Origin: an uncultured Chlamydiae bacterium
GTDB taxonomy: Bacteria > Chlamydiota > Chlamydiia > Chlamydiales > Parachlamydiaceae
DNA length: 64,000 nucleotides
Reading direction: 5' to 3'
NCBI GenBank assembly: GCA_963799115.1
Contig: CAWCVY010000049.1
Location: forward strand, 3,901-67,900
Below the pieces are notes generated by a model that saw only the letters and a program-made list of their open reading frames with translations, was not told where the DNA came from and did not search any database. Below, one piece after another: positions 29,179 through 63,624 of the stretch (position 1 is the first letter of the stretch; each line of letters begins with the position of its first letter). Position numbers and translations under genes: made by a program.

Positions 29179-29240
29179 GGTATAACCCCCAACTTTTCGT
29201 CTATACGAAAAGCAGGGTGCAATTTTTATGCCAAAGAATA

Positions 29241-29554
29241 GACATCTTGCATAACCACAATTCCTTGCCCCTGCCCCTGCCCTTGCCCGAAAAAGTTCTG
29301 GCAGGAGGGAGCGGGAGAATATTCCATAGATGAAAAAGCTCGATTTTATCGGAAGCCAAACGGTCTGCAGAATGCGCGGGAATTTTAGATGCGTGTCAAC
29401 GACTACAACTTGTGAATGAAGAACGATATGCCAAAGGGCGAGAATTGCTGATTAGCATCGTGTCTATGCTAGTGAAAATGGCTCAAAAACAACACTAATC
29501 GGGCAAGGGCAGGGGCACGGGCACGGGCAAGGAATTGTGGTTATGCAAGATGTC
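29241..29554. mobile_element. TA-flanked TIR element, internal-deletion derivative carrying the 3' third of a four-helix-bundle gene (family B, copy B1)
   Basis: The left TIR is gacatcttgcataaccacaattccttgcccctgcccctgcccttgccc. The right TIR is its reverse complement with one extra hexamer unit. TA lies at 29239..29240 and 29555..29556. The interior is roughly 85-90% identical by eye to the 3' part of ORF 49781..50140. Confidence 0.8.
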
Positions 29555-30553
29555 TAATGTTTTTGGAAAGGAGTGATAGTCTTGCCGGACCTTGTTCCAA
29601 ATGAATTCTGCCCGTTTATTGCGTTTTGTTTTTTTATCTAGCAACTCGCTTCCGGAGCAGTTATCCCTGTTAATTTCTTCGCCAAAAGCTAAATAGACAG
29701 GGGTAAAGCATACTAGGCGTTTTTCCCCCAATTCTTTTTCCACTTGTTGGGGAGGGGGCATAAGATGATATGTTTGCAAAGCAAGCGTATAGAAATGAGT
29801 CGGACGTTCAGCTTGTTGTGCCATAAGCCAGAAAAGTTCAATACTCTGAGGGTCAAATGGAGCGACATCGATTTCTCCGGCTGCATTTGGACGGTCCCTC
29901 CCGCCGCTAGGTGCGACGAAAATACAATAGCCCCCCTCGTTGAGGAGATCACCCATCTTTTTCATTGTTCGTTGATTGTGTAAAACTTTATTAGCTTTTT
30001 CGCTGGGTGGGTAAGCGATGTGTTTCTTTGAATAAATGCACAATAGATTGCGTCCCATGCTCATGGGAATTGCCATAGGATCGCTGATTACGCGGTGACC
30101 TGCAATAAAAATAATATCGGCAGCCAATTGGGCATCAATGTTCTCCAGTAAAAGGCTAATGATCTGGGGATCGGGTTCTGTTTGATGATTAGCTAGTAAA
30201 ATGACATTTTCCCCTTTTTTGATTTGGGTTCGAATTGATTGCAAATGATCAAGGCCAAAAACTTTAGAATTTGCAAAGTCTACAAAAGGTCGGATAAAGT
30301 CCATTCCAAATTGATAATAGTCAAAAGGGTGGCGAATACTTTTATGAAAAATTTGAAATTTGTAGGGATCTTGAATTTGTTCGGCAATAAACTCTATAAG
30401 CTTTTCAAAAATTTTTTTATTTTTTTCTTTATAGGGGGTATTGCAAATGGCTTGAGAGTAACTGTCATAAAATTCCTGAATCAGTCCGGCAAGTTTGGGA
30501 TTGATCATTTTTTTTTCTTGAAAAGAATTTAAAATGGGAAGTTTATCCTTCAT
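29495..30553 (-). CDS. Glycerol-3-phosphate acyltransferase, soluble plant-plastid (ATS1) type
   Basis: The translation carries the H(X)4D acyltransferase motif NHQTEPDP and the motifs FVAPSGGRDR and IAGHRV. The last 19 codons (LDILHNHNSLPVPVPLPLPD) and the stop codon are encoded by the right TIR of element B1. Confidence 0.8.
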   Translation of the reverse strand: MKDKLPILNSFQEKKMINPKLAGLIQEFYDSYSQAICNTPYKEKNKKIFEKLIEFIAEQIQDPYKFQIFHKSIRHPFDYYQFGMDFIRPFVDFANSKVFGLDHLQSIRTQIKKGENVILLANHQTEPDPQIISLLLENIDAQLAADIIFIAGHRVISDPMAIPMSMGRNLLCIYSKKHIAYPPSEKANKVLHNQRTMKKMGDLLNEGGYCIFVAPSGGRDRPNAAGEIDVAPFDPQSIELFWLMAQQAERPTHFYTLALQTYHLMPPPQQVEKELGEKRLVCFTPVYLAFGEEINRDNCSGSELLDKKTKRNKRAEFIWNKVRQDYHSFPKTLDILHNHNSLPVPVPLPLPD

Positions 30554-48924: not shown

Positions 48925-49554
48925 TTATTCTCCAATTTGATTAATATAATTGTAGACACTTGCACGCGAAATTTTGAGCCGTTTCGCAATAAATGGCACC
49001 GCATTTTTAAAATTAAAAATCCCTTTGTGGTACAGGTGATGGACTATCTCTTGCTTTTGTTCGCGGTTGAGGTGAGCGAGTGATAAATGCTTTTCATCCA
49101 AATACTCTTGAATCACCCTCATCGCCTGTTCTTCACACTCTATTCCAAATAGTTCGATGGGGTTCTCGGCTTCTATTTTGGTTTTTAGAAACCCCTCAAG
49201 CAAGCGGTGGGTCTCCTGGATCACACTCGTATCTGTGTTGAAGCAGATCAAGCCAATGGGCTCCTCTTTGGCATCTCGAATGGTGATCGAGGTGCATTTT
49301 AGAGGACGGCCATCCCAATTGAGCTTATAATAGGGTTCAAAATAGTCCGGAAAATCGTTGATGTTCACCTTTAACTCACTGAGCGGAGAAACATCGCCCA
49401 CCTTGCGTTGCGAGATGTTGTGGTAAATGGCTACAAGCTTCCCTTCTTTCAAATCATGCACTGCTGCTTCCACAAAGGGATGAAACAGGTCTACAATTGC
49501 TTTAATGATCGGTTCATATAATTTAAAATGGTCGGCAAATGTGTTTTTTTTCAT
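48925..49554 (-). CDS. YheO-like transcriptional regulator (PAS-like domain + C-terminal HTH)
   Basis: The C-terminus HHLYHKGIFNFKNAVPFIAKRLKISRASVYNYINQI aligns by eye with the E. coli YheO C-terminus (LYEKGIFDIKDAINQVADRLNISKHTVYLYIRQ). The central segment GLICFNTD matches GLLCINMN. Confidence 0.7.
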   Translation of the reverse strand: MKKNTFADHFKLYEPIIKAIVDLFHPFVEAAVHDLKEGKLVAIYHNISQRKVGDVSPLSELKVNINDFPDYFEPYYKLNWDGRPLKCTSITIRDAKEEPIGLICFNTDTSVIQETHRLLEGFLKTKIEAENPIELFGIECEEQAMRVIQEYLDEKHLSLAHLNREQKQEIVHHLYHKGIFNFKNAVPFIAKRLKISRASVYNYINQIGE

Positions 49555-49780
49555 GTTTTCTCGCTATTGAGTTTTCTAATGATACCAAAATATAGATTTT
49601 ATGTCAAATTTAGACAAAATGTCAATATCAAAAGATGAGTATTTTCAAGCTAATGCCGCAAAATGACCCACTAACGGAGTAAGATCGATAGCGGCTTAAT
49701 AGACATCTTGCATAACCTCAATTCCTTGCCCGTGCCCCTGCCCCTGCCCTTGCTCTATTAGCGTTGTTTTTGAGCCATTT

Positions 49781-50140
49781 TCACAGCATAGACACGATGC
49801 TAATCAGCAGTTCTCGTCCTTTGGTATATCGTTCTTCATTCACAAGCTGCAATCGTTGACACACATCCAAAATTCCCGCGCATTCTGTAGCAGACCTTTT
49901 AGCCATCCGATAAAATCGAGCTTTTTCATCGATGGAATATTCTCCCGCTCCTTCTGCAATATTCAATGGTATTGACAAACCCGCACGTTGAAGCTGATCG
50001 CTTAAATAGGCCCTACCCCGAGGTAAATGTTCTATTATAACATCCGCAAGTACAACAAATTCTATTGCCACTTGGTATACGGTTAACTTTTCATGGTCTA
50101 AAAGAATTCGTTTCTGCACTGGAGAAATGGCGATTGTCAT
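49781..50140 (-). CDS. Four-helix-bundle protein (23S rRNA intervening-sequence protein / Avd-like family)
   Basis: The 119-aa ORF has the family pattern LTVYQVAIEFVVLADVI..LPRGRAYLSDQLQRAGLSIPLNIAEGAGEYS..EKARFYRMAKRSATECAGILDVC. Relative to copy B1, a 1-nt deletion removes the last roughly 8 codons. Confidence 0.8.
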   Translation of the reverse strand: MTIAISPVQKRILLDHEKLTVYQVAIEFVVLADVIIEHLPRGRAYLSDQLQRAGLSIPLNIAEGAGEYSIDEKARFYRMAKRSATECAGILDVCQRLQLVNEERYTKGRELLISIVSML

Positions 50141-51003
50141 ATTTTAACTCCCAATTTTGAATCCCTGCGATCAGATTGAATCGCAATCCAAATCTTTTTC
50201 TTCTGTTTCGATATTTATCACTCAAAATTTTAAATCGTTTTAAGCGCCCTATTACATTTTCATTTAAAGCTCGCTTTGAAGAAATATCACGATTCATCTG
50301 CTTTTCATCTCTTGTAAGAGCTTTGCCTCTTGATCGTTTTTTGGCAATAGACTCGTATTTTAAAGTTTTTTTATTCCGGTATACCCAGAATCAACGATTC
50401 CTTGAACCGTTTGAACCCAACGTACCTTACTGTCTTTGAATAGCTTAAAATCATGTCTCTTCCCATTGCAAAAGTTCGTGCATATGATCAAACTCGACTG
50501 GTTATCTACAACGACCTGACTCTTTAGCGTATGCCTTTTCTTTTTCCCGGAATAATATCTTTTCTGTTTGTTATTTCTATTTCTGATCCGATTTTTGCAT
50601 CGGATCTTTTTTTTTGGCCTTTCTATCGGGCTTTCAGTAGCATCAATCAAAATCACTTCAAATTCAGTGTCACTTTTAAGCAGAGCCTTCTTTCCAGGAA
50701 GAGAAAATTCTTTGCTTTTAATTAAGATGTCTTCAATCCACTTGCAATTTCTATAGCAGGCACTTTCACTCAGCCCATAGCTTTGTCATAAATGAAAATA
50801 GGTCCTGTATTCTCTTAAGTATTCCAGGGCATAAGTAATTTATCTTCGACGACGAGACGAGAAGGCTTTCCTCCCTGGGACATTCTCTGCTTCTCGGCCT
50901 CTTTAACTATTGAAATCATTTGTACAAAGGTCTCCTTTCGTACTCCTGTTAATCTTCTAAATTCAGTGGGCGAAAGTTTCTGTATAGCTTCGTATTTTTG
51001 CAT
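50091..51003 (-). pseudogene. IS5-like DDE transposase (DDE_Tnp_4/harbinger-like type), decayed into at least 3 ORF pieces
   Basis: The N-terminal HTH piece covers 50815..51003 (LSPTEFRRLTGVRKETFVQMI). The DDE core piece covers 50360..50656 (ILIDATESPIERP...KKKRHTLKSQVVVD...GKRHDFKLF...VDSGYTGI). The C-terminal piece covers 50091..50297 (NVIGRLKRFKILSDKYRNRRKRFGLRFNLIAGI). I did not identify the IS ends. Confidence 0.65.
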
Positions 51004-51385
51004 AAATGGCCGATGGATTTAAGAAGCAGACCCTTATATTAAAAAATAAAATTGCGTGCCAGAACTTTTTCGGGCAAGGGCAAGGGCAGAGGCACGGGCA
51101 AGGAATTGAGGTTATGCAAGATGTCTAATGACTATGACGCAGCTCTTTGTGGGTTTGCGAGTGCAAGGAAGGTAAGAACAACTAATCTTGAAATTGGTAT
51201 TGCGTCTAAAGACGATGAAGGATTTTGGGATGGTAAAAAGTGTAGGAAAATATTTTCCAACGATTCCAATTTGCAATTGTGTCTGCAAAATGGTGCTCCA
51301 TTAATAACTTGGGAACTTCTAATGCAGTCTTAAGTCCCTGAATTTTCTTACGGTTTTAATGATAATTTCAAATTTAAATGCATAT

Positions 51386-51748
51386 TTATTTTCCTAAGGC
51401 AGCTATGCGAGTATTTGAATGCGATCCACTAATCCACGTATGCCCCCGCTCTGATTGCGATTTTGCAGGGCTGATCATGATGCTAACATCTTGCCCCAAT
51501 TCATTGAGGAAACGAATAAGACGCTCTAAAGAAAAGCTCCGCAATCTTCCATGAATTAAGGCAGAAATTTTTGGTTGATCAATACCTAAAATTTCAGCAG
51601 CTTGTTTTTGGGTTAGCTTTTTCTTTTTGATAAGCTTGCCTATTTGACGAGCGAACTCAGATTTAGCCAAAGCCTCTTCTGGGTTTTCAATGCCTAAATC
51701 GGCAAAGACATTTCCAGAACTTTCTTCGTACTCGATCTTTTTTTTCAT
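51386..51748 (-). CDS. higA: XRE-family HTH antitoxin (HigA-like)
   Basis: The HTH region is LTQKQAAEILGIDQPKISALIHGRL..FSLERLIRFLNELG. The gene lies 3 nt downstream of the toxin gene. Confidence 0.75.
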   Translation of the reverse strand: MKKKIEYEESSGNVFADLGIENPEEALAKSEFARQIGKLIKKKKLTQKQAAEILGIDQPKISALIHGRLRSFSLERLIRFLNELGQDVSIMISPAKSQSERGHTWISGSHSNTRIAALGK

Positions 51749-51750
51749 AA

Positions 51751-52107
51751 TTATTTTTCCCCCTTTAATTCTTTATACAAGGACTCCGCTTCTTTCAAGC
51801 GATGCTTAATTAAATCGATATCTTGTTTTGGAGTTGCGATTCCTTTTTTCGATTTTTTCTGAAAGGCATGGAGTACAAAAATAAACTCGGCCATTTCAAC
51901 TGTGTAAACTACTCGATAAGTTCCTGATCTGTCGTTTTCTCTAATCTCTAAGATTTTAGCACTACCAAATCCGCTAAATGTTTTTGCATGATTGTGTCTA
52001 TCTCCCATTTGAGCCAGGTAGAGGCCATGCCCCATTTCATCTTGCACTTCATCAGGAAATTCTTTGAGGTCTTCTCGGCTGGAACCAATCCAGAATAGTC
52101 GTTTCAT
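51751..52107 (-). CDS. higB: RelE/ParE-superfamily toxin of the HigB / phage Gp49-like type
   Basis: The segments WIGSSREDLKEFPDEVQDEMGHGLYLAQMG and YRVVYTVEMAEFIFVLHAFQKKSKKG fit the Gp49-like toxin pattern. The gene order is toxin first. Confidence 0.75.
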   Translation of the reverse strand: MKRLFWIGSSREDLKEFPDEVQDEMGHGLYLAQMGDRHNHAKTFSGFGSAKILEIRENDRSGTYRVVYTVEMAEFIFVLHAFQKKSKKGIATPKQDIDLIKHRLKEAESLYKELKGEK

Positions 52108-63130: not shown

Positions 63131-63353
63131 TTATAAGCACCTATATGATAAGCATTTTCACTAATGCTTTTTAGGGAAGGTCAAGAGAGGATTTGATTTC
63201 GCTGTAAATGCGATCAATCAACTTAAACCTTCTTGCAATTTATTGACTTTGCTAATTTTTATTTTTAACACCTTGAAAGTTAAATTTTTATGTAATAAGA
63301 ATTTTAAAGTTTTTTTGCTTAATGAGAAGTTAATTTTGCAACAGCATATATTA

Positions 63354-63517
63354 AACTTCGTGCATAATTCATTTCCTTGCCCTTGCCCAAAAAAAAATCA
63401 AAAAAGAGTGGTTATCAAAGAGGCTGAAAGTAAAAGGACTTCTCGAAGAGGAAAACACCACATCTTTTCGTTAATCGGGCAAGGGCAAGGGCAAGGAAAA
63501 TGAATTATGCAAGAAGT
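63354..63517. mobile_element. 164-bp MITE of the TA-flanked TIR family (copy B3, no ORF)
   Basis: The TIRs are aacttcgtgcataattcatttccttgcccttgccc / gggcaagggcaagggcaaggaaaatgaattatgcaagaagtc. TA lies at 63352..63353 and 63518..63519. Confidence 0.75.
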
Positions 63518-63624
63518 CTAATATGAAAATCAAGATTCTAGACCTAAATGATTTTGGAGTGTGGCAAAATGGAAAACCATTTAAAATTAAATCCTGCCTA
63601 CACCTCGATGATAAGGAGATTCTC

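Follow-up and report, generated by a model that had tools for sequence, protein, structure and literature searches.

The locus described here raises two questions: what kind of mobile element would carry a gene of the 23S rRNA intervening sequence (IVS) and Avd type outside rDNA, and what would move it. The window, the whole stretch of 64,000 nt that was analysed from an uncultured Chlamydiota genome, had been described in an initial annotation as containing a mobile element bounded by long terminal inverted repeats (TIRs), with a decayed IS5-like transposase gene as a secondary insertion and no transposase of its own. The bounded mobile element was supported by our analysis, and its reading as an element without a transposase was overturned. 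There is little doubt that this is an insertion sequence (IS) of the ISL2 group in which a cognate transposase is accompanied by a second gene encoding a four-helix-bundle (4HB) protein, and the copy at 49701–51126 (copy 1) is very probably a full-length, now inactive IS of the IS5 family, ISL2 group (IS702/ISCaa3-like). The IS family itself was already known; what is new is the 4HB second gene and the subterminal (YTGCCC)3–8 arrays inside both ends. The features are collected in Table 1.

Table 1. Coordinates of the element copies in the window and of the parts of copy 1
Feature	Position	Strand	Support or remark
AAT target-site duplication, left of copy 1	49698..49700		same AAT at 51127–51129
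Outer terminal inverted repeat AGACATCTTGCATAACCTCAATTCC, 4HB-side end	49701..49725	+	homologous to IS702, Fukatsuia IS and Neochlamydia IS ends
Subterminal hexamer array TTGCCC GTGCCC CTGCCC CTGCCC TTGCTC	49726..49755	+	
4HB gene (PF05635/TIGR02436), very probably the second gene of the IS, 119 aa here	49781..50140	-	profile matches, AF2 model, Foldseek
IS5-family (ISL2-group) DDE transposase pseudogene, cognate	50091..51003	-	profile matches, intact homologues of 304 aa
68-nt leader, array to transposase ATG	51004..51071	-	common to intact copies; first ~30 nt also in MITEs
Subterminal hexamer array, transposase-side end	51072..51101	-	
Outer terminal inverted repeat, transposase-side end	51102..51126	-	
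AAT target-site duplication, right of copy 1	51127..51129		read directly from sequence
Copy 2, internal-deletion derivative	29240..29555	+	AAT at 29237–29239 and 29556–29558
Copy 3, 167-bp MITE, second TIR subfamily (..GCATAATTCATTTCC..)	63353..63519	-	subfamily seen in L053–L060

The TIRs of about 55 nt with internal hexamer arrays proved to be real. The inverted-repeat arms of copy 1 (49700–49753 and 51074–51127) are 54 nt long and 96 % complementary, the outer TIR motif occurs in four exact copies in the window against none in 100 shuffles, and the hexamer array gave 13 matches where 0.04 were expected. The corrected ends of the element read AGAC...GTCT, and the number of hexamers per end ranges from 3 to 8 with a mode of 5 (105 distinct ends). 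The element measures 1426–1430 bp (intact copies ~1428 bp), with two conserved genes and TIRs of 54–60 nt. Its intact order is a 25-nt ISL2-type TIR (AGACATCTTGCATAACCTCAATTCC), 3–8 YTGCCC hexamers, the 68-nt leader, a gene for a 304-aa transposase and then one for a 127-aa 4HB protein, followed 2–3 nt past the 4HB stop codon by the inverted hexamer array and the inverted terminal repeat. The 4HB ATG lies 49 nt inside the 3′ end of the transposase gene, with a GGAG motif 8 nt upstream of it. A scan for promoters and terminators in the element returned nothing above shuffled sequences. The window copies are placed between protein-coding genes or at gene ends, and exact-protein look-ups aimed at empty sites for them showed that locus L069 carries the insertion of copy 1, while the neighbour of copy 2 had no entry.

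The transposase gene recognised in the initial annotation as decayed and IS5-like is indeed present, as minus-strand fragments in three frames between 51003 and 50091; two nonsense codons and single-nucleotide deletions near 50831 and 50345 disrupt it. The fragments match PF13359 and PF01609 (DDE_Tnp_4/DDE_Tnp_1), as an IS5-type DDE enzyme does, and match the NCBIfam IS5 family NF033581 at an E value of 4e-18; the disruption of the gene keeps these hits under the equivalog cut-off. The intact homologues P0001 (98 % identical, encoded on a 72-kb contig) and P0002 (92 %) carry PF13613, PF01609 and PF13359. The idea that this gene entered the element secondarily did not survive comparison with intact copies, which come from metagenomes: L052, L061, L062 and L066 align end to end with positions 49698–51129 at 92–95 %, and L063, which like L061, L062 and L066 is an element of 1423–1475 bp with both TIRs, matches these positions over its whole length. 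In these intact elements 68 nt separate the same TIR from the transposase ATG, and the start codon of the 4HB gene falls within the 3′ end of the transposase gene; in L052, for example, the flank gives way to an AGACATC.. TIR and the array, after which come the 68-nt leader, a transposase gene intact at 304 aa and, overlapping it, the 4HB gene. The TIR is likewise contiguous with the transposase 5′ region in other chlamydial metagenome-assembled genomes (MAGs), and a 395-bp derivative (L040) keeps the junction between the transposase 3′ end and the 4HB ATG. Furthermore, HTH_Tnp_4/DDE_Tnp_4 ORFs precede the 4HB gene on the same strand in 16/16 places (two 4HB variants looked up). The intact elements refute the absence of a cognate transposase, and the comparison shows that this transposase is cognate to the AGAC...GTCT ends.

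The closest characterised relatives of the element are ISL2-group elements. Its transposase has 57–64 % amino acid identity to ISCaa3-type transposases (57–60 % to the ISCaa3 cluster, P0026) and 45 % to that of IS702 (H29); ISCaa3 has been classed as IS5/ISL2 (PMC3196728). The outer TIR, AGACATCTTGCATAA, is a generic ISL2/IS702 end, homologous to those of IS702 (AGAACTCTTGCATAA), a Fukatsuia IS (AGACCTCTTCGG) and a Neochlamydia IS (AGACTTCTTGC). With IS702 of Calothrix/Tolypothrix PCC 7601 and ISCaa3 of Amoebophilus asiaticus, the chlamydial element has in common the HTH_Tnp_4 plus DDE architecture (45–60 % identity), the terminal AGA(A/C)NTCTTGCA.. and a 3-bp target duplication, and the hosts of this type are intracellular or amoeba-associated bacteria, and cyanobacteria. 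However, ISL2 elements are typically compact (~0.85–1.1 kb) with a transposase only; IS702 and ISCaa3 measure 0.9–1.1 kb with one gene and TIRs of ~17–25 nt, whereas the chlamydial element measures 1.43 kb, has two genes, owes its longer TIRs to the YTGCCC arrays and encodes a transposase whose C-terminus is extended by 15 aa through the overlap with the 4HB gene. Both the hexamer array and the 4HB gene were absent from the ISL2 relatives compared (four close or characterised relatives and the published description of ISCaa3), whose TIRs are ~17–25 nt.

The second gene was also correctly assigned at the outset, and it encodes a genuine PF05635/Avd-type four-helix bundle. The 119-aa ORF matches PF05635 (E 4.8e-23, 81.8 bits against a cut-off of 33.8) and TIGR02436 (E 3.9e-20, 72.1 bits against a cut-off of 24), and is a form of the 127-aa protein truncated by a 1-nt deletion near 49785. 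An AF2 model predicts four helices (pLDDT 88.8), and Foldseek placed this model closest to Xcc0516, BT_0352 and bAvd, consistent with the four-helix-bundle fold: 2gsc was matched at TM 0.83/0.91, 2rld was also found, and 4dwl and 8ub7 were matched at about 0.72/0.85. The sequence itself matches 2gsc at an E value of 6e-7. QRAxLSIxLNIAEG is invariant in two 4HB alignments and contains the R-x3-S-x3-N-x2-E(G) motif described for the PF05635 family (PMC3936711). The best 120 database matches to the 4HB protein are all at least 80 % identical to it and 103–156 aa long, nearly all of them 125–127 aa. A dN/dS of about 0.055 between the two subfamilies shows strong purifying selection on the protein. 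PF05635 proteins are very widespread; to our knowledge, Avd in diversity-generating retroelements (DGRs) is the only one with an understood function.

We tentatively regard the 4HB protein as an accessory factor encoded by the element, which would be translationally coupled to the transposase and would act on the subterminal arrays, either as DNA at both ends or as a ~55-bp RNA stem in read-through transcripts. This role is suggested by the joint occurrence of the 4HB gene and the arrays in this one IS lineage, none of its close relatives having either, and by unrelated 4HB genes elsewhere that are also bracketed by inverted tandem arrays. It would parallel either the second, DNA-binding protein of PIF/Harbinger transposons or the Avd–RNA–RT complex of DGRs. 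These eukaryotic PIF/Harbinger transposons combine an IS5-like DDE transposase with a separate Myb/SANT protein that binds subterminal repeats, and generate a 3-bp TWA duplication. The chlamydial element resembles them in pairing an IS5-type DDE enzyme with a second gene, in the short repeats that adjoin the TIRs internally and in a 3-bp duplication of A/T only that reads identically on both strands; their second protein is of Myb/SANT type whereas that of the element is a four-helix bundle, and the likeness is an analogy with no homology claimed for the second gene. Avd has the same fold and family as the 4HB protein and is a small accessory protein that belongs to a mobile or mutagenic element and works with a nucleic-acid enzyme. 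However, the element differs from a DGR in having no reverse transcriptase and no template/variable repeat, and the identity of the 4HB protein to bAvd is only about 8 %. The transposase and the 4HB gene are the only contents of the element, and no RT domain was found among the genes called in L053–L068. The 4HB protein has a pI of 7.8–8.6, mildly basic and unlike a typical nucleic-acid binder.

The arrangement of an ORF within a long inverted repeat, noted in the initial annotation as mirroring an IVS outside rRNA, was found around unrelated 4HB genes elsewhere, which supports the broader idea of IVS-like cassettes outside rRNA. Distantly related 4HB genes lie between inverted tandem-repeat arrays on cyanobacterial plasmids (three of three scanned for repeats; seven plasmid loci retrieved) and at about 50 of 68 metagenome loci. 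In this test the direct-orientation control was cleaner than the cross-locus control, which was inflated because many cassettes have the same heptamer. These free cassettes are transposase-less insertions of about 0.4 kb in operons, and two Nostoc plasmids have reciprocal filled and empty cassette sites. Such findings would fit a chimeric origin, in which the primary selfish unit is a small cassette of the form array, 4HB gene, inverted array that fused with an IS702-like element in this chlamydial lineage, and the 4HB gene is a hitch-hiker rather than a transposition factor. The commonness of these cassettes and their behaviour as insertions agree with this, as do the absence of any ISL2 transposase within 203 kb of 87 such cassette loci and the 3′ array, which begins at the 4HB stop codon in the IS and in the free cassettes alike. 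We nevertheless consider a chimera rather unlikely: the 5′ array of the IS lies upstream of the transposase and against the outer TIR, an order that no single insertion, whether of a cassette into an IS or of an IS into a cassette, yields; the start of the 4HB gene overlaps the end of the transposase gene with an SD-like GGAG, resembling an integrated operon; and the YTGCCC-type hexamer motif was not seen in the free cassettes examined.

It is less probable still that the 4HB protein is a passenger retained for an advantage that it gives the host or the element in the face of defence systems (for example, by interfering with CRISPR or RT-based systems), with the arrays as slippage-prone extensions of the TIRs. 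The strong purifying selection on the 4HB gene would be expected of such cargo, the variation from 3 to 8 hexamers is what slippage would produce, and PF05635 genes occur repeatedly inside cas operons (PMC3936711, PMC10910872). However, the genes in cas operons resemble selfish insertions that bring inverted arrays with them rather than cas components, no defence or anti-defence domain was detected in the element with Pfam and NCBIfam, and this explanation does not account for the different array sequences that accompany different 4HB genes.

The element also invites comparison with 23S rRNA IVSs, which are cut out of the transcript by RNase III. The IVS ORFs of Leptospira, Coxiella ('S23p') and Brucella belong to the same PF05635 family as the 4HB gene, and they sit in the loop of a long inverted-repeat stem, as the 4HB gene does between the two complementary arms of copy 1; the RNA of copy 2 is predicted to fold at -140.8 kcal/mol (z -11.2) with a terminal stem of ~50 bp. 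Both IVSs and the element are sporadic and apparently horizontally spread. The element differs in lying outside rDNA, and not in helix 9, 25 or 45 of 23S rRNA, and in carrying a transposase, defined IS ends and a target duplication. The search for a copy in 23S rDNA covered the window and 20 of the 80 cassette loci, none of which contains rRNA. The origin of IVSs has been described as unresolved, with older hypotheses of a 'remnant of transposition' or a 'mobile element whose ORF aids mobility' (PMC4990558). One speculative reading, which we consider possible although doubtful, is that PF05635 genes are usually the cargo of small insertion cassettes enclosed in inverted arrays of 6–7-nt tandem repeats; ORF-bearing IVSs would be the rDNA form of these, the chlamydial IS would show the mover (an ISL2-type transposase together with the 4HB protein acting on the arrays), and free cassettes would be transposase-less derivatives like copy 2. 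If this were true, the 'association' of PF05635 with cas operons would be re-read as selfish insertion, a simple explanation for PF05635 genes inside cas and other operons.

This is the first case we have found in which a PF05635 gene is built into, and under selection within, a transposon whose transposase can be recognised. The transposon also has ends that are well defined, duplicates its target and has given rise to deletion derivatives and to MITEs. It provides a first physical link between a 23S-IVS-type gene and a transposase. The origin of ORF-bearing 23S rRNA IVSs has been open since 1990–93, and the element makes the transposition hypotheses experimentally addressable. For IS biology, the element adds to the ISL2 group a member with two genes and subterminal repeats, a prokaryotic match in its layout for the two-gene PIF/Harbinger transposons. 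A literature search of incomplete coverage found no published description of a link between IS5 and PF05635 or of array-bounded PF05635 cassettes.

The manner of insertion bears on what moves the element. Each end had been reported to abut a TA dinucleotide, and a T–A does adjoin GAC...GTC at 81 of 86 distinct ends, 86 being the number of distinct end flanks in the loci compared. As a duplication of TA, however, this did not stand. Comparison of an empty site (L009) with the filled site (L021) gave a 3-bp AWT duplication, the empty site falling 3 nt short of the length expected for a TA duplication, and in each of five half-site comparisons the base after the terminal AWT of the target is not A, such that the A beside GAC does not come from the target. 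Insertion duplicates a 3-bp AWT target (by sequence indistinguishable from a 1-bp duplication when the ends are AGAC), and the apparent TA consists of the last T of AWT and the first A of the element. A 5-bp duplication (TAWTA) fails the flank statistics. Copies 1 and 2 are both flanked by AAT/AAT. Short duplications of 2–3 bp are characteristic of the ISL2 group, whose members give ATT or GTT: relatives with the ends AGACCTCTTC, AGAACTCTTGCA and AGACTTCTTGC have duplications of ATT/ATT, GTT/GTT and ATT/ATT, respectively. The initial proposal of a non-autonomous transposon defined by its 4HB cargo, with the IS5 transposase as an unrelated later insertion and an IS630/Tc1-mariner enzyme moving the element and duplicating TA, would fit the T–A at the ends and the IS630-family element present in a related MAG (L001, 796–1931), but it is highly improbable given that every full-length copy has the transposase at one position and lacks separate IS ends around it, that the outer TIR is an ISL2/IS702 end, that the empty site and half sites give AWT and not TA, and that the one IS630 element examined has unrelated ends (TAGTACGGCATGTCAATTGAATTG; TAGTACGGCATGTCAATTG). 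In the reading that we prefer, the DDE transposase of the element would move the copies of the family, whether autonomous or not, and would do so like other IS5 enzymes, by cut-and-paste or copy-out.

As first described, the window contains a deletion derivative and a MITE besides the full-length copy; the bounds of the two smaller copies (initially 29241–29554 and 63354–63517) are now corrected to those in Table 1. The three copies are independent insertions: their flanking sequences differ, and since no flanking sequence is common to them they are not segmental duplications. Copy 2 joins full-length positions 1 to ~65 to 1176–1430, so that the final ~200 nt of the 4HB gene are retained together with the two TIRs. 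MITEs of 135–190 bp are represented by copy 3 and by 22 or more elements in one long-read Parachlamydiales MAG; apart from the TIRs and the arrays, they retain just ~35 internal nt, and their flanks are of the same type. As these MITEs lack the 4HB gene and have multiplied, the 4HB gene is not needed in cis. They are like other IS-derived bacterial MITEs, and to these the chlamydial family adds an intermediate class with an intact 4HB gene and a destroyed transposase, which was seen in many samples with different flanks (L053–L060). A split transposase (142+133 aa) occurs in many metagenome copies. Copy number and site diversity suggest that the family has been active, as do contigs broken at the TIR in several MAGs. 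In 8 of 20 MITEs from the long-read MAG, the two duplications disagree at their middle base. Recombination between copies may be responsible, and is suspected because the flanks of one MITE (L032) derive from two different loci. Copy 3 has a decayed left end (AAACTTCGTGCATAA), and its two flanks are ATT and AAT.

The 1.4-kb segment with long inverted-repeat ends and internal hexamer arrays, reported in the initial annotation, was confirmed, as were the assignment of its ORF to the four-helix-bundle (4HB) family and the presence of two further copies in the window. The outer motif of the terminal inverted repeat (TIR) occurred 4 times in the window, compared to 0 in 100 shuffles, and the hexamer array pattern gave 13 matches where 0.04 were expected. 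No pair among the three copies has any flanking sequence in common, which excludes segmental duplication. The TIR subfamily of copy 3 was also present in loci L053–L060. Copy 1, the full-length copy, is decayed: its transposase has two nonsense codons and has lost single nucleotides near 50831 and 50345, and a 1-nt deletion near 49785 reduces the 4HB protein from 127 to 119 aa.

Features of the element, its neighbourhood and the comparison loci
Feature	Location	Strand	Details
Inverted-repeat arms, copy 1	49700-49753 and 51074-51127		54 nt, 96 % complementary
4HB ORF	49781..50140	minus	PF05635 81.8 bits, TIGR02436 72.1 bits, both far over cut-offs
IS5-family transposase	51003 to 50091	minus	Three reading-frame fragments; matches to IS5-family transposases
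Copy 2	29241-29554		Full-length positions 1 to ~65 fused to 1176-1430
Copy 3	63354-63517		167-bp MITE, second TIR subfamily (true bounds 63353-63519)
Acyltransferase gene (PF01553)	29495-30553	minus	Frame extends 61 nt into copy 2
PAS_6/HTH_22 regulator	48925-49554		Beside copy 1
Gp49 (HigB-like)/HTH_37 (HigA-like) pair	51386-52107	minus	Toxin-antitoxin type, directly adjoins copy 1
tRNA	1066-1140	plus	Sole Rfam match in window
IS630-family element	L001 720-1949		Two-ORF transposase, ends TAGTACGGCATGTCAATTG, TA flanks
Array-flanked plasmid 4HB locus	L071 2462-2919		Inverted flanking arrays
Array-flanked plasmid 4HB locus	L072 2257-2957		Gene-adjacent arrays direct; inverted partner further upstream
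Array-flanked plasmid 4HB locus	L073 2343-2884		Inverted flanking arrays
4HB between cas6 and cas4	L072 2495-2854		Repeat arrays flank gene
4HB between cas10/cmr2 and cmr3	L075 1483-1839		Tight operon gap
4HB between HisH-like and HisA/F-like genes	L084 1495-1863		Metagenome cassette, repeat arrays flank gene

Our study showed the element to be an ISL2-group insertion sequence with its cognate DDE transposase, an AWT target duplication and non-autonomous derivatives. The TIR pattern, run against one genome per species, hit 51 loci. Environmental Chlamydiota MAGs account for nearly all of them, and many are at the end of a contig, as a multi-copy repeat would be. In several Chlamydiota MAGs the TIR was continuous with homology to the 5' part of the window transposase, and a derivative of 395 bp from a Simkaniaceae MAG retained the junction between transposase 3' end and 4HB start, which was the earliest hint that the transposase is the element's own. 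Joined into a pseudo-protein, the three frame fragments of copy 1 had 98 % identity to P0001 and 92 % to P0002, both intact database proteins of 304 aa. The P0002 contig comprises, in order, host flank, AGACATCTTGCATAACCTCAATTCC, five hexamers, a 68-nt leader and the transposase ATG, and the 4HB ATG lies 49 nt ahead of the transposase stop. Look-ups of two common 4HB variants yielded 16 further places, and ORFs with HTH_Tnp_4/DDE_Tnp_4 preceded the 4HB on the same strand in all 16. Four of these contigs have both ends (1423–1475 bp) and align end to end with window 49698–51129 at 92–95 % identity, so that the window copy is the full-length element and not a small element plus an insertion. Together with the P0002 layout, this refutes the earlier reading of the IS5 transposase as a secondary insertion.

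The transposase has 57–64 % identity to the ISCaa3 group (Neochlamydia, Amoebophilus, Legionella, Orientia, Wolbachia) and 45 % to IS702. ISCaa3, of the IS5 family, ISL2 group, is 914 bp long with a single transposase gene (PMC3196728), whereas the full-length window element carries 4HB as a second gene. Ends were examined in four relatives, with clean ends called in three and none for the Nostoc copy: the 1014-bp Fukatsuia IS (end AGACCTCTTCGGAAACT, target duplication ATT/ATT), the 1098-bp IS702 (end AGAACTCTTGCA(A/T)AA, GTT/GTT) and the Neochlamydia IS of about 945 bp (end AGACTTCTTGC, ATT/ATT). Judged by its outer 15 nt (AGACATCTTGCATAA), the window element plainly has the same end type. 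All four relatives lack a second gene and hexamer arrays. At the sequence level, the element agrees with an IS5/ISL2 insertion sequence in every test except compactness, and its cargo with PF05635. It lies outside 23S rRNA, the defining location of an intervening sequence (IVS), is without the RT of a DGR, and fails the test for an IS630-mobilized MITE. Several metagenome copies (L061–L067) have one extra base at the run CCAAAAAAAAGG (window about 50600–50615), which splits the transposase into 142 + 133 aa; as −1 frameshifting has been reported for ISCaa3, the split could mark a programmed or phase-variable site instead of decay.

The TA flanks of the initial annotation stand in so far as 81 of 86 distinct ends have T-A before GAC, yet the target duplication is not TA. 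The conserved flank is longer, with A-W-T-A ahead of GAC and T-A-W-T after GTC. One full empty site, from a paralogous pair in a long-read Parachlamydiales MAG, reads CCCAAAATATTATCGATC, and its filled counterpart has CCCAAAATATTA before GAC and TATTATCGATC after GTC; the empty site is three bases short of the length required by a TA duplication. In five insertions with an uninterrupted target copy, the target closes with AAT or ATT and the next base is not A, so the A adjoining GAC is part of the element. On these alignments, TA duplication was rejected: the element ends AGAC...GTCT and its duplication is a 3-bp AWT, as in its relatives. Window copies 1 and 2 have AAT on both sides. Of 20 MITEs in the long-read MAG MFD06092, 8 (L001, L006, L020, L023, L026, L029, L031 and L032) differ between their two sides in the middle base of the duplication. 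Recombination between copies is a plausible source, since homologues of the L032 MITE flanks lie at two separate loci, L006 and L019. Contigs assembled from short reads may also carry chimeric flanks.

An AWT duplication leaves the suggested IS630/Tc1-mariner mobilization without basis, and the one IS630 element met had unrelated ends. IS630 ends also occur beside IS copies, in the flanks of L061 (about 130–155) and L062 (about 1535–1561), indicating nested IS elements in these regions.

The 4HB protein was predicted with confidence as a four-helix bundle (pLDDT 88.8), its nearest structural neighbours being Xcc0516 (TM 0.83/0.91), BT_0352 and bAvd, in that order, and it keeps the family motif R-x3-S-x3-N-x2-EG. 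A database search found 2532 relatives; the best 120 have 80–99 % identity, are nearly all 125–127 aa long and lie mostly on contigs of 1–2 kb, which matches the element in length. A comparison of the two TIR subfamilies gave a dN of 0.09, a dS of about 1.6 and a dN/dS of about 0.055; the ratio, although approximate as dS is near saturation, points clearly to purifying selection. A GGAG 8 nt upstream of the 4HB ATG lies within the transposase reading frame, making translational coupling likely. In composite derivatives of the second TIR subfamily (L053–L060, e.g. L056 705–2028), the transposase is destroyed by a solo internal TIR that stands in place of the stretch corresponding to window 50407–50576; the 4HB of this derivative, P0144, nevertheless shows no difference across 22 contigs, which come from several samples and have differing outer flanks. 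Numerous MITEs carry neither gene, indicating that 4HB is not required in cis.

The transposase would move the autonomous element and all non-autonomous derivatives. Two lineage-specific features co-occur, the 4HB gene and YTGCCC arrays inside both ends (3–8 units, mode 5), and we tentatively propose from this that 4HB acts on the arrays, via DNA or RNA, a role we regard as possible rather than probable. In PIF/Harbinger elements a second protein acts on subterminal repeats, and 4HB would similarly work on the arrays in synapsis or regulation. As an RNA-level alternative, it would work on the ~55-bp stem of paired ends in read-through transcripts; the RNA fold of copy 2 was −140.8 kcal/mol (z −11.2).

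A rival explanation is that 4HB is a hitch-hiking selfish cassette, upon which 4HB genes elsewhere have a bearing. On cyanobacterial plasmids, distantly related 4HB genes (about 32 % identity) adjoin no transposase. All three scanned for repeats lie between short tandem arrays of 7-mers, (GGGAAAA)n in one locus and (TTAGCTG)n in two, and the flanking arrays are inverted in two of the three. Nostoc sp. ATCC 53789 pNsp_c (L071 2120–3010) and N. punctiforme pNPUN02 (L076 1394–2200) share an operon with the cassette in different intergenic gaps, giving reciprocal filled and empty sites; arrays occur solely where the 4HB gene does, and a nearby SNP kept the exact duplication from being called. A metagenome scan with the plasmid proteins gave 80 JGI loci (L082–L161), 68 with both flanks. 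At about 50 of the 68, a (CAGGAGT-like)n array (variants CAGGAGT/CAGAAGT/CAGAATT) runs up to the ATG and a complementary array starts within the last codons, the units containing SD-like AGGAG upstream and CTCCT downstream. The median inverted-repeat score was 34, compared to 16.5 in a direct-orientation control. A similarity, possibly coincidental, links the cassette termini (AGGAGTC/AGAATTC) to the initial 7 nt of ISL2 ends (AGAACTC, AGACATC). No ISL2 transposase was found in 203 kb over 87 cassette loci.

That 4HB is defence-related cargo, the other rival, recalls the occurrence of PF05635 at cas loci, interpreted earlier as functional association (PMC3936711; PMC10910872); two of the seven plasmid 4HB loci fetched lie inside cas operons, and such occurrence of 23S_rRNA_IVP may reflect selfish insertion rather than cas function.

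The array-flanked free cassettes support the annotated likeness to an IVS beyond rRNA, but no copy in rDNA was found in the window or in the 20 cassette loci scanned, neither of which contained rRNA. Our literature search, of incomplete coverage, returned no description of an array-bounded PF05635 cassette or of an IS5 link. The insertion sequence is by itself only mildly surprising; it is valuable because, through it, the nature of IVS ORFs and the origin of IVSs, an old question, become open to experiment.

The host is an uncultured member of the Chlamydiota. One window protein had 100 % identity to a protein encoded on a 95-kb contig, and its nearest named relative was a Parachlamydiaceae protein (47 %). 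Copy 1 lies between a regulator and a toxin–antitoxin-type pair, and the TIR of copy 2 supplies the last 20 codons and the stop codon of the acyltransferase gene.
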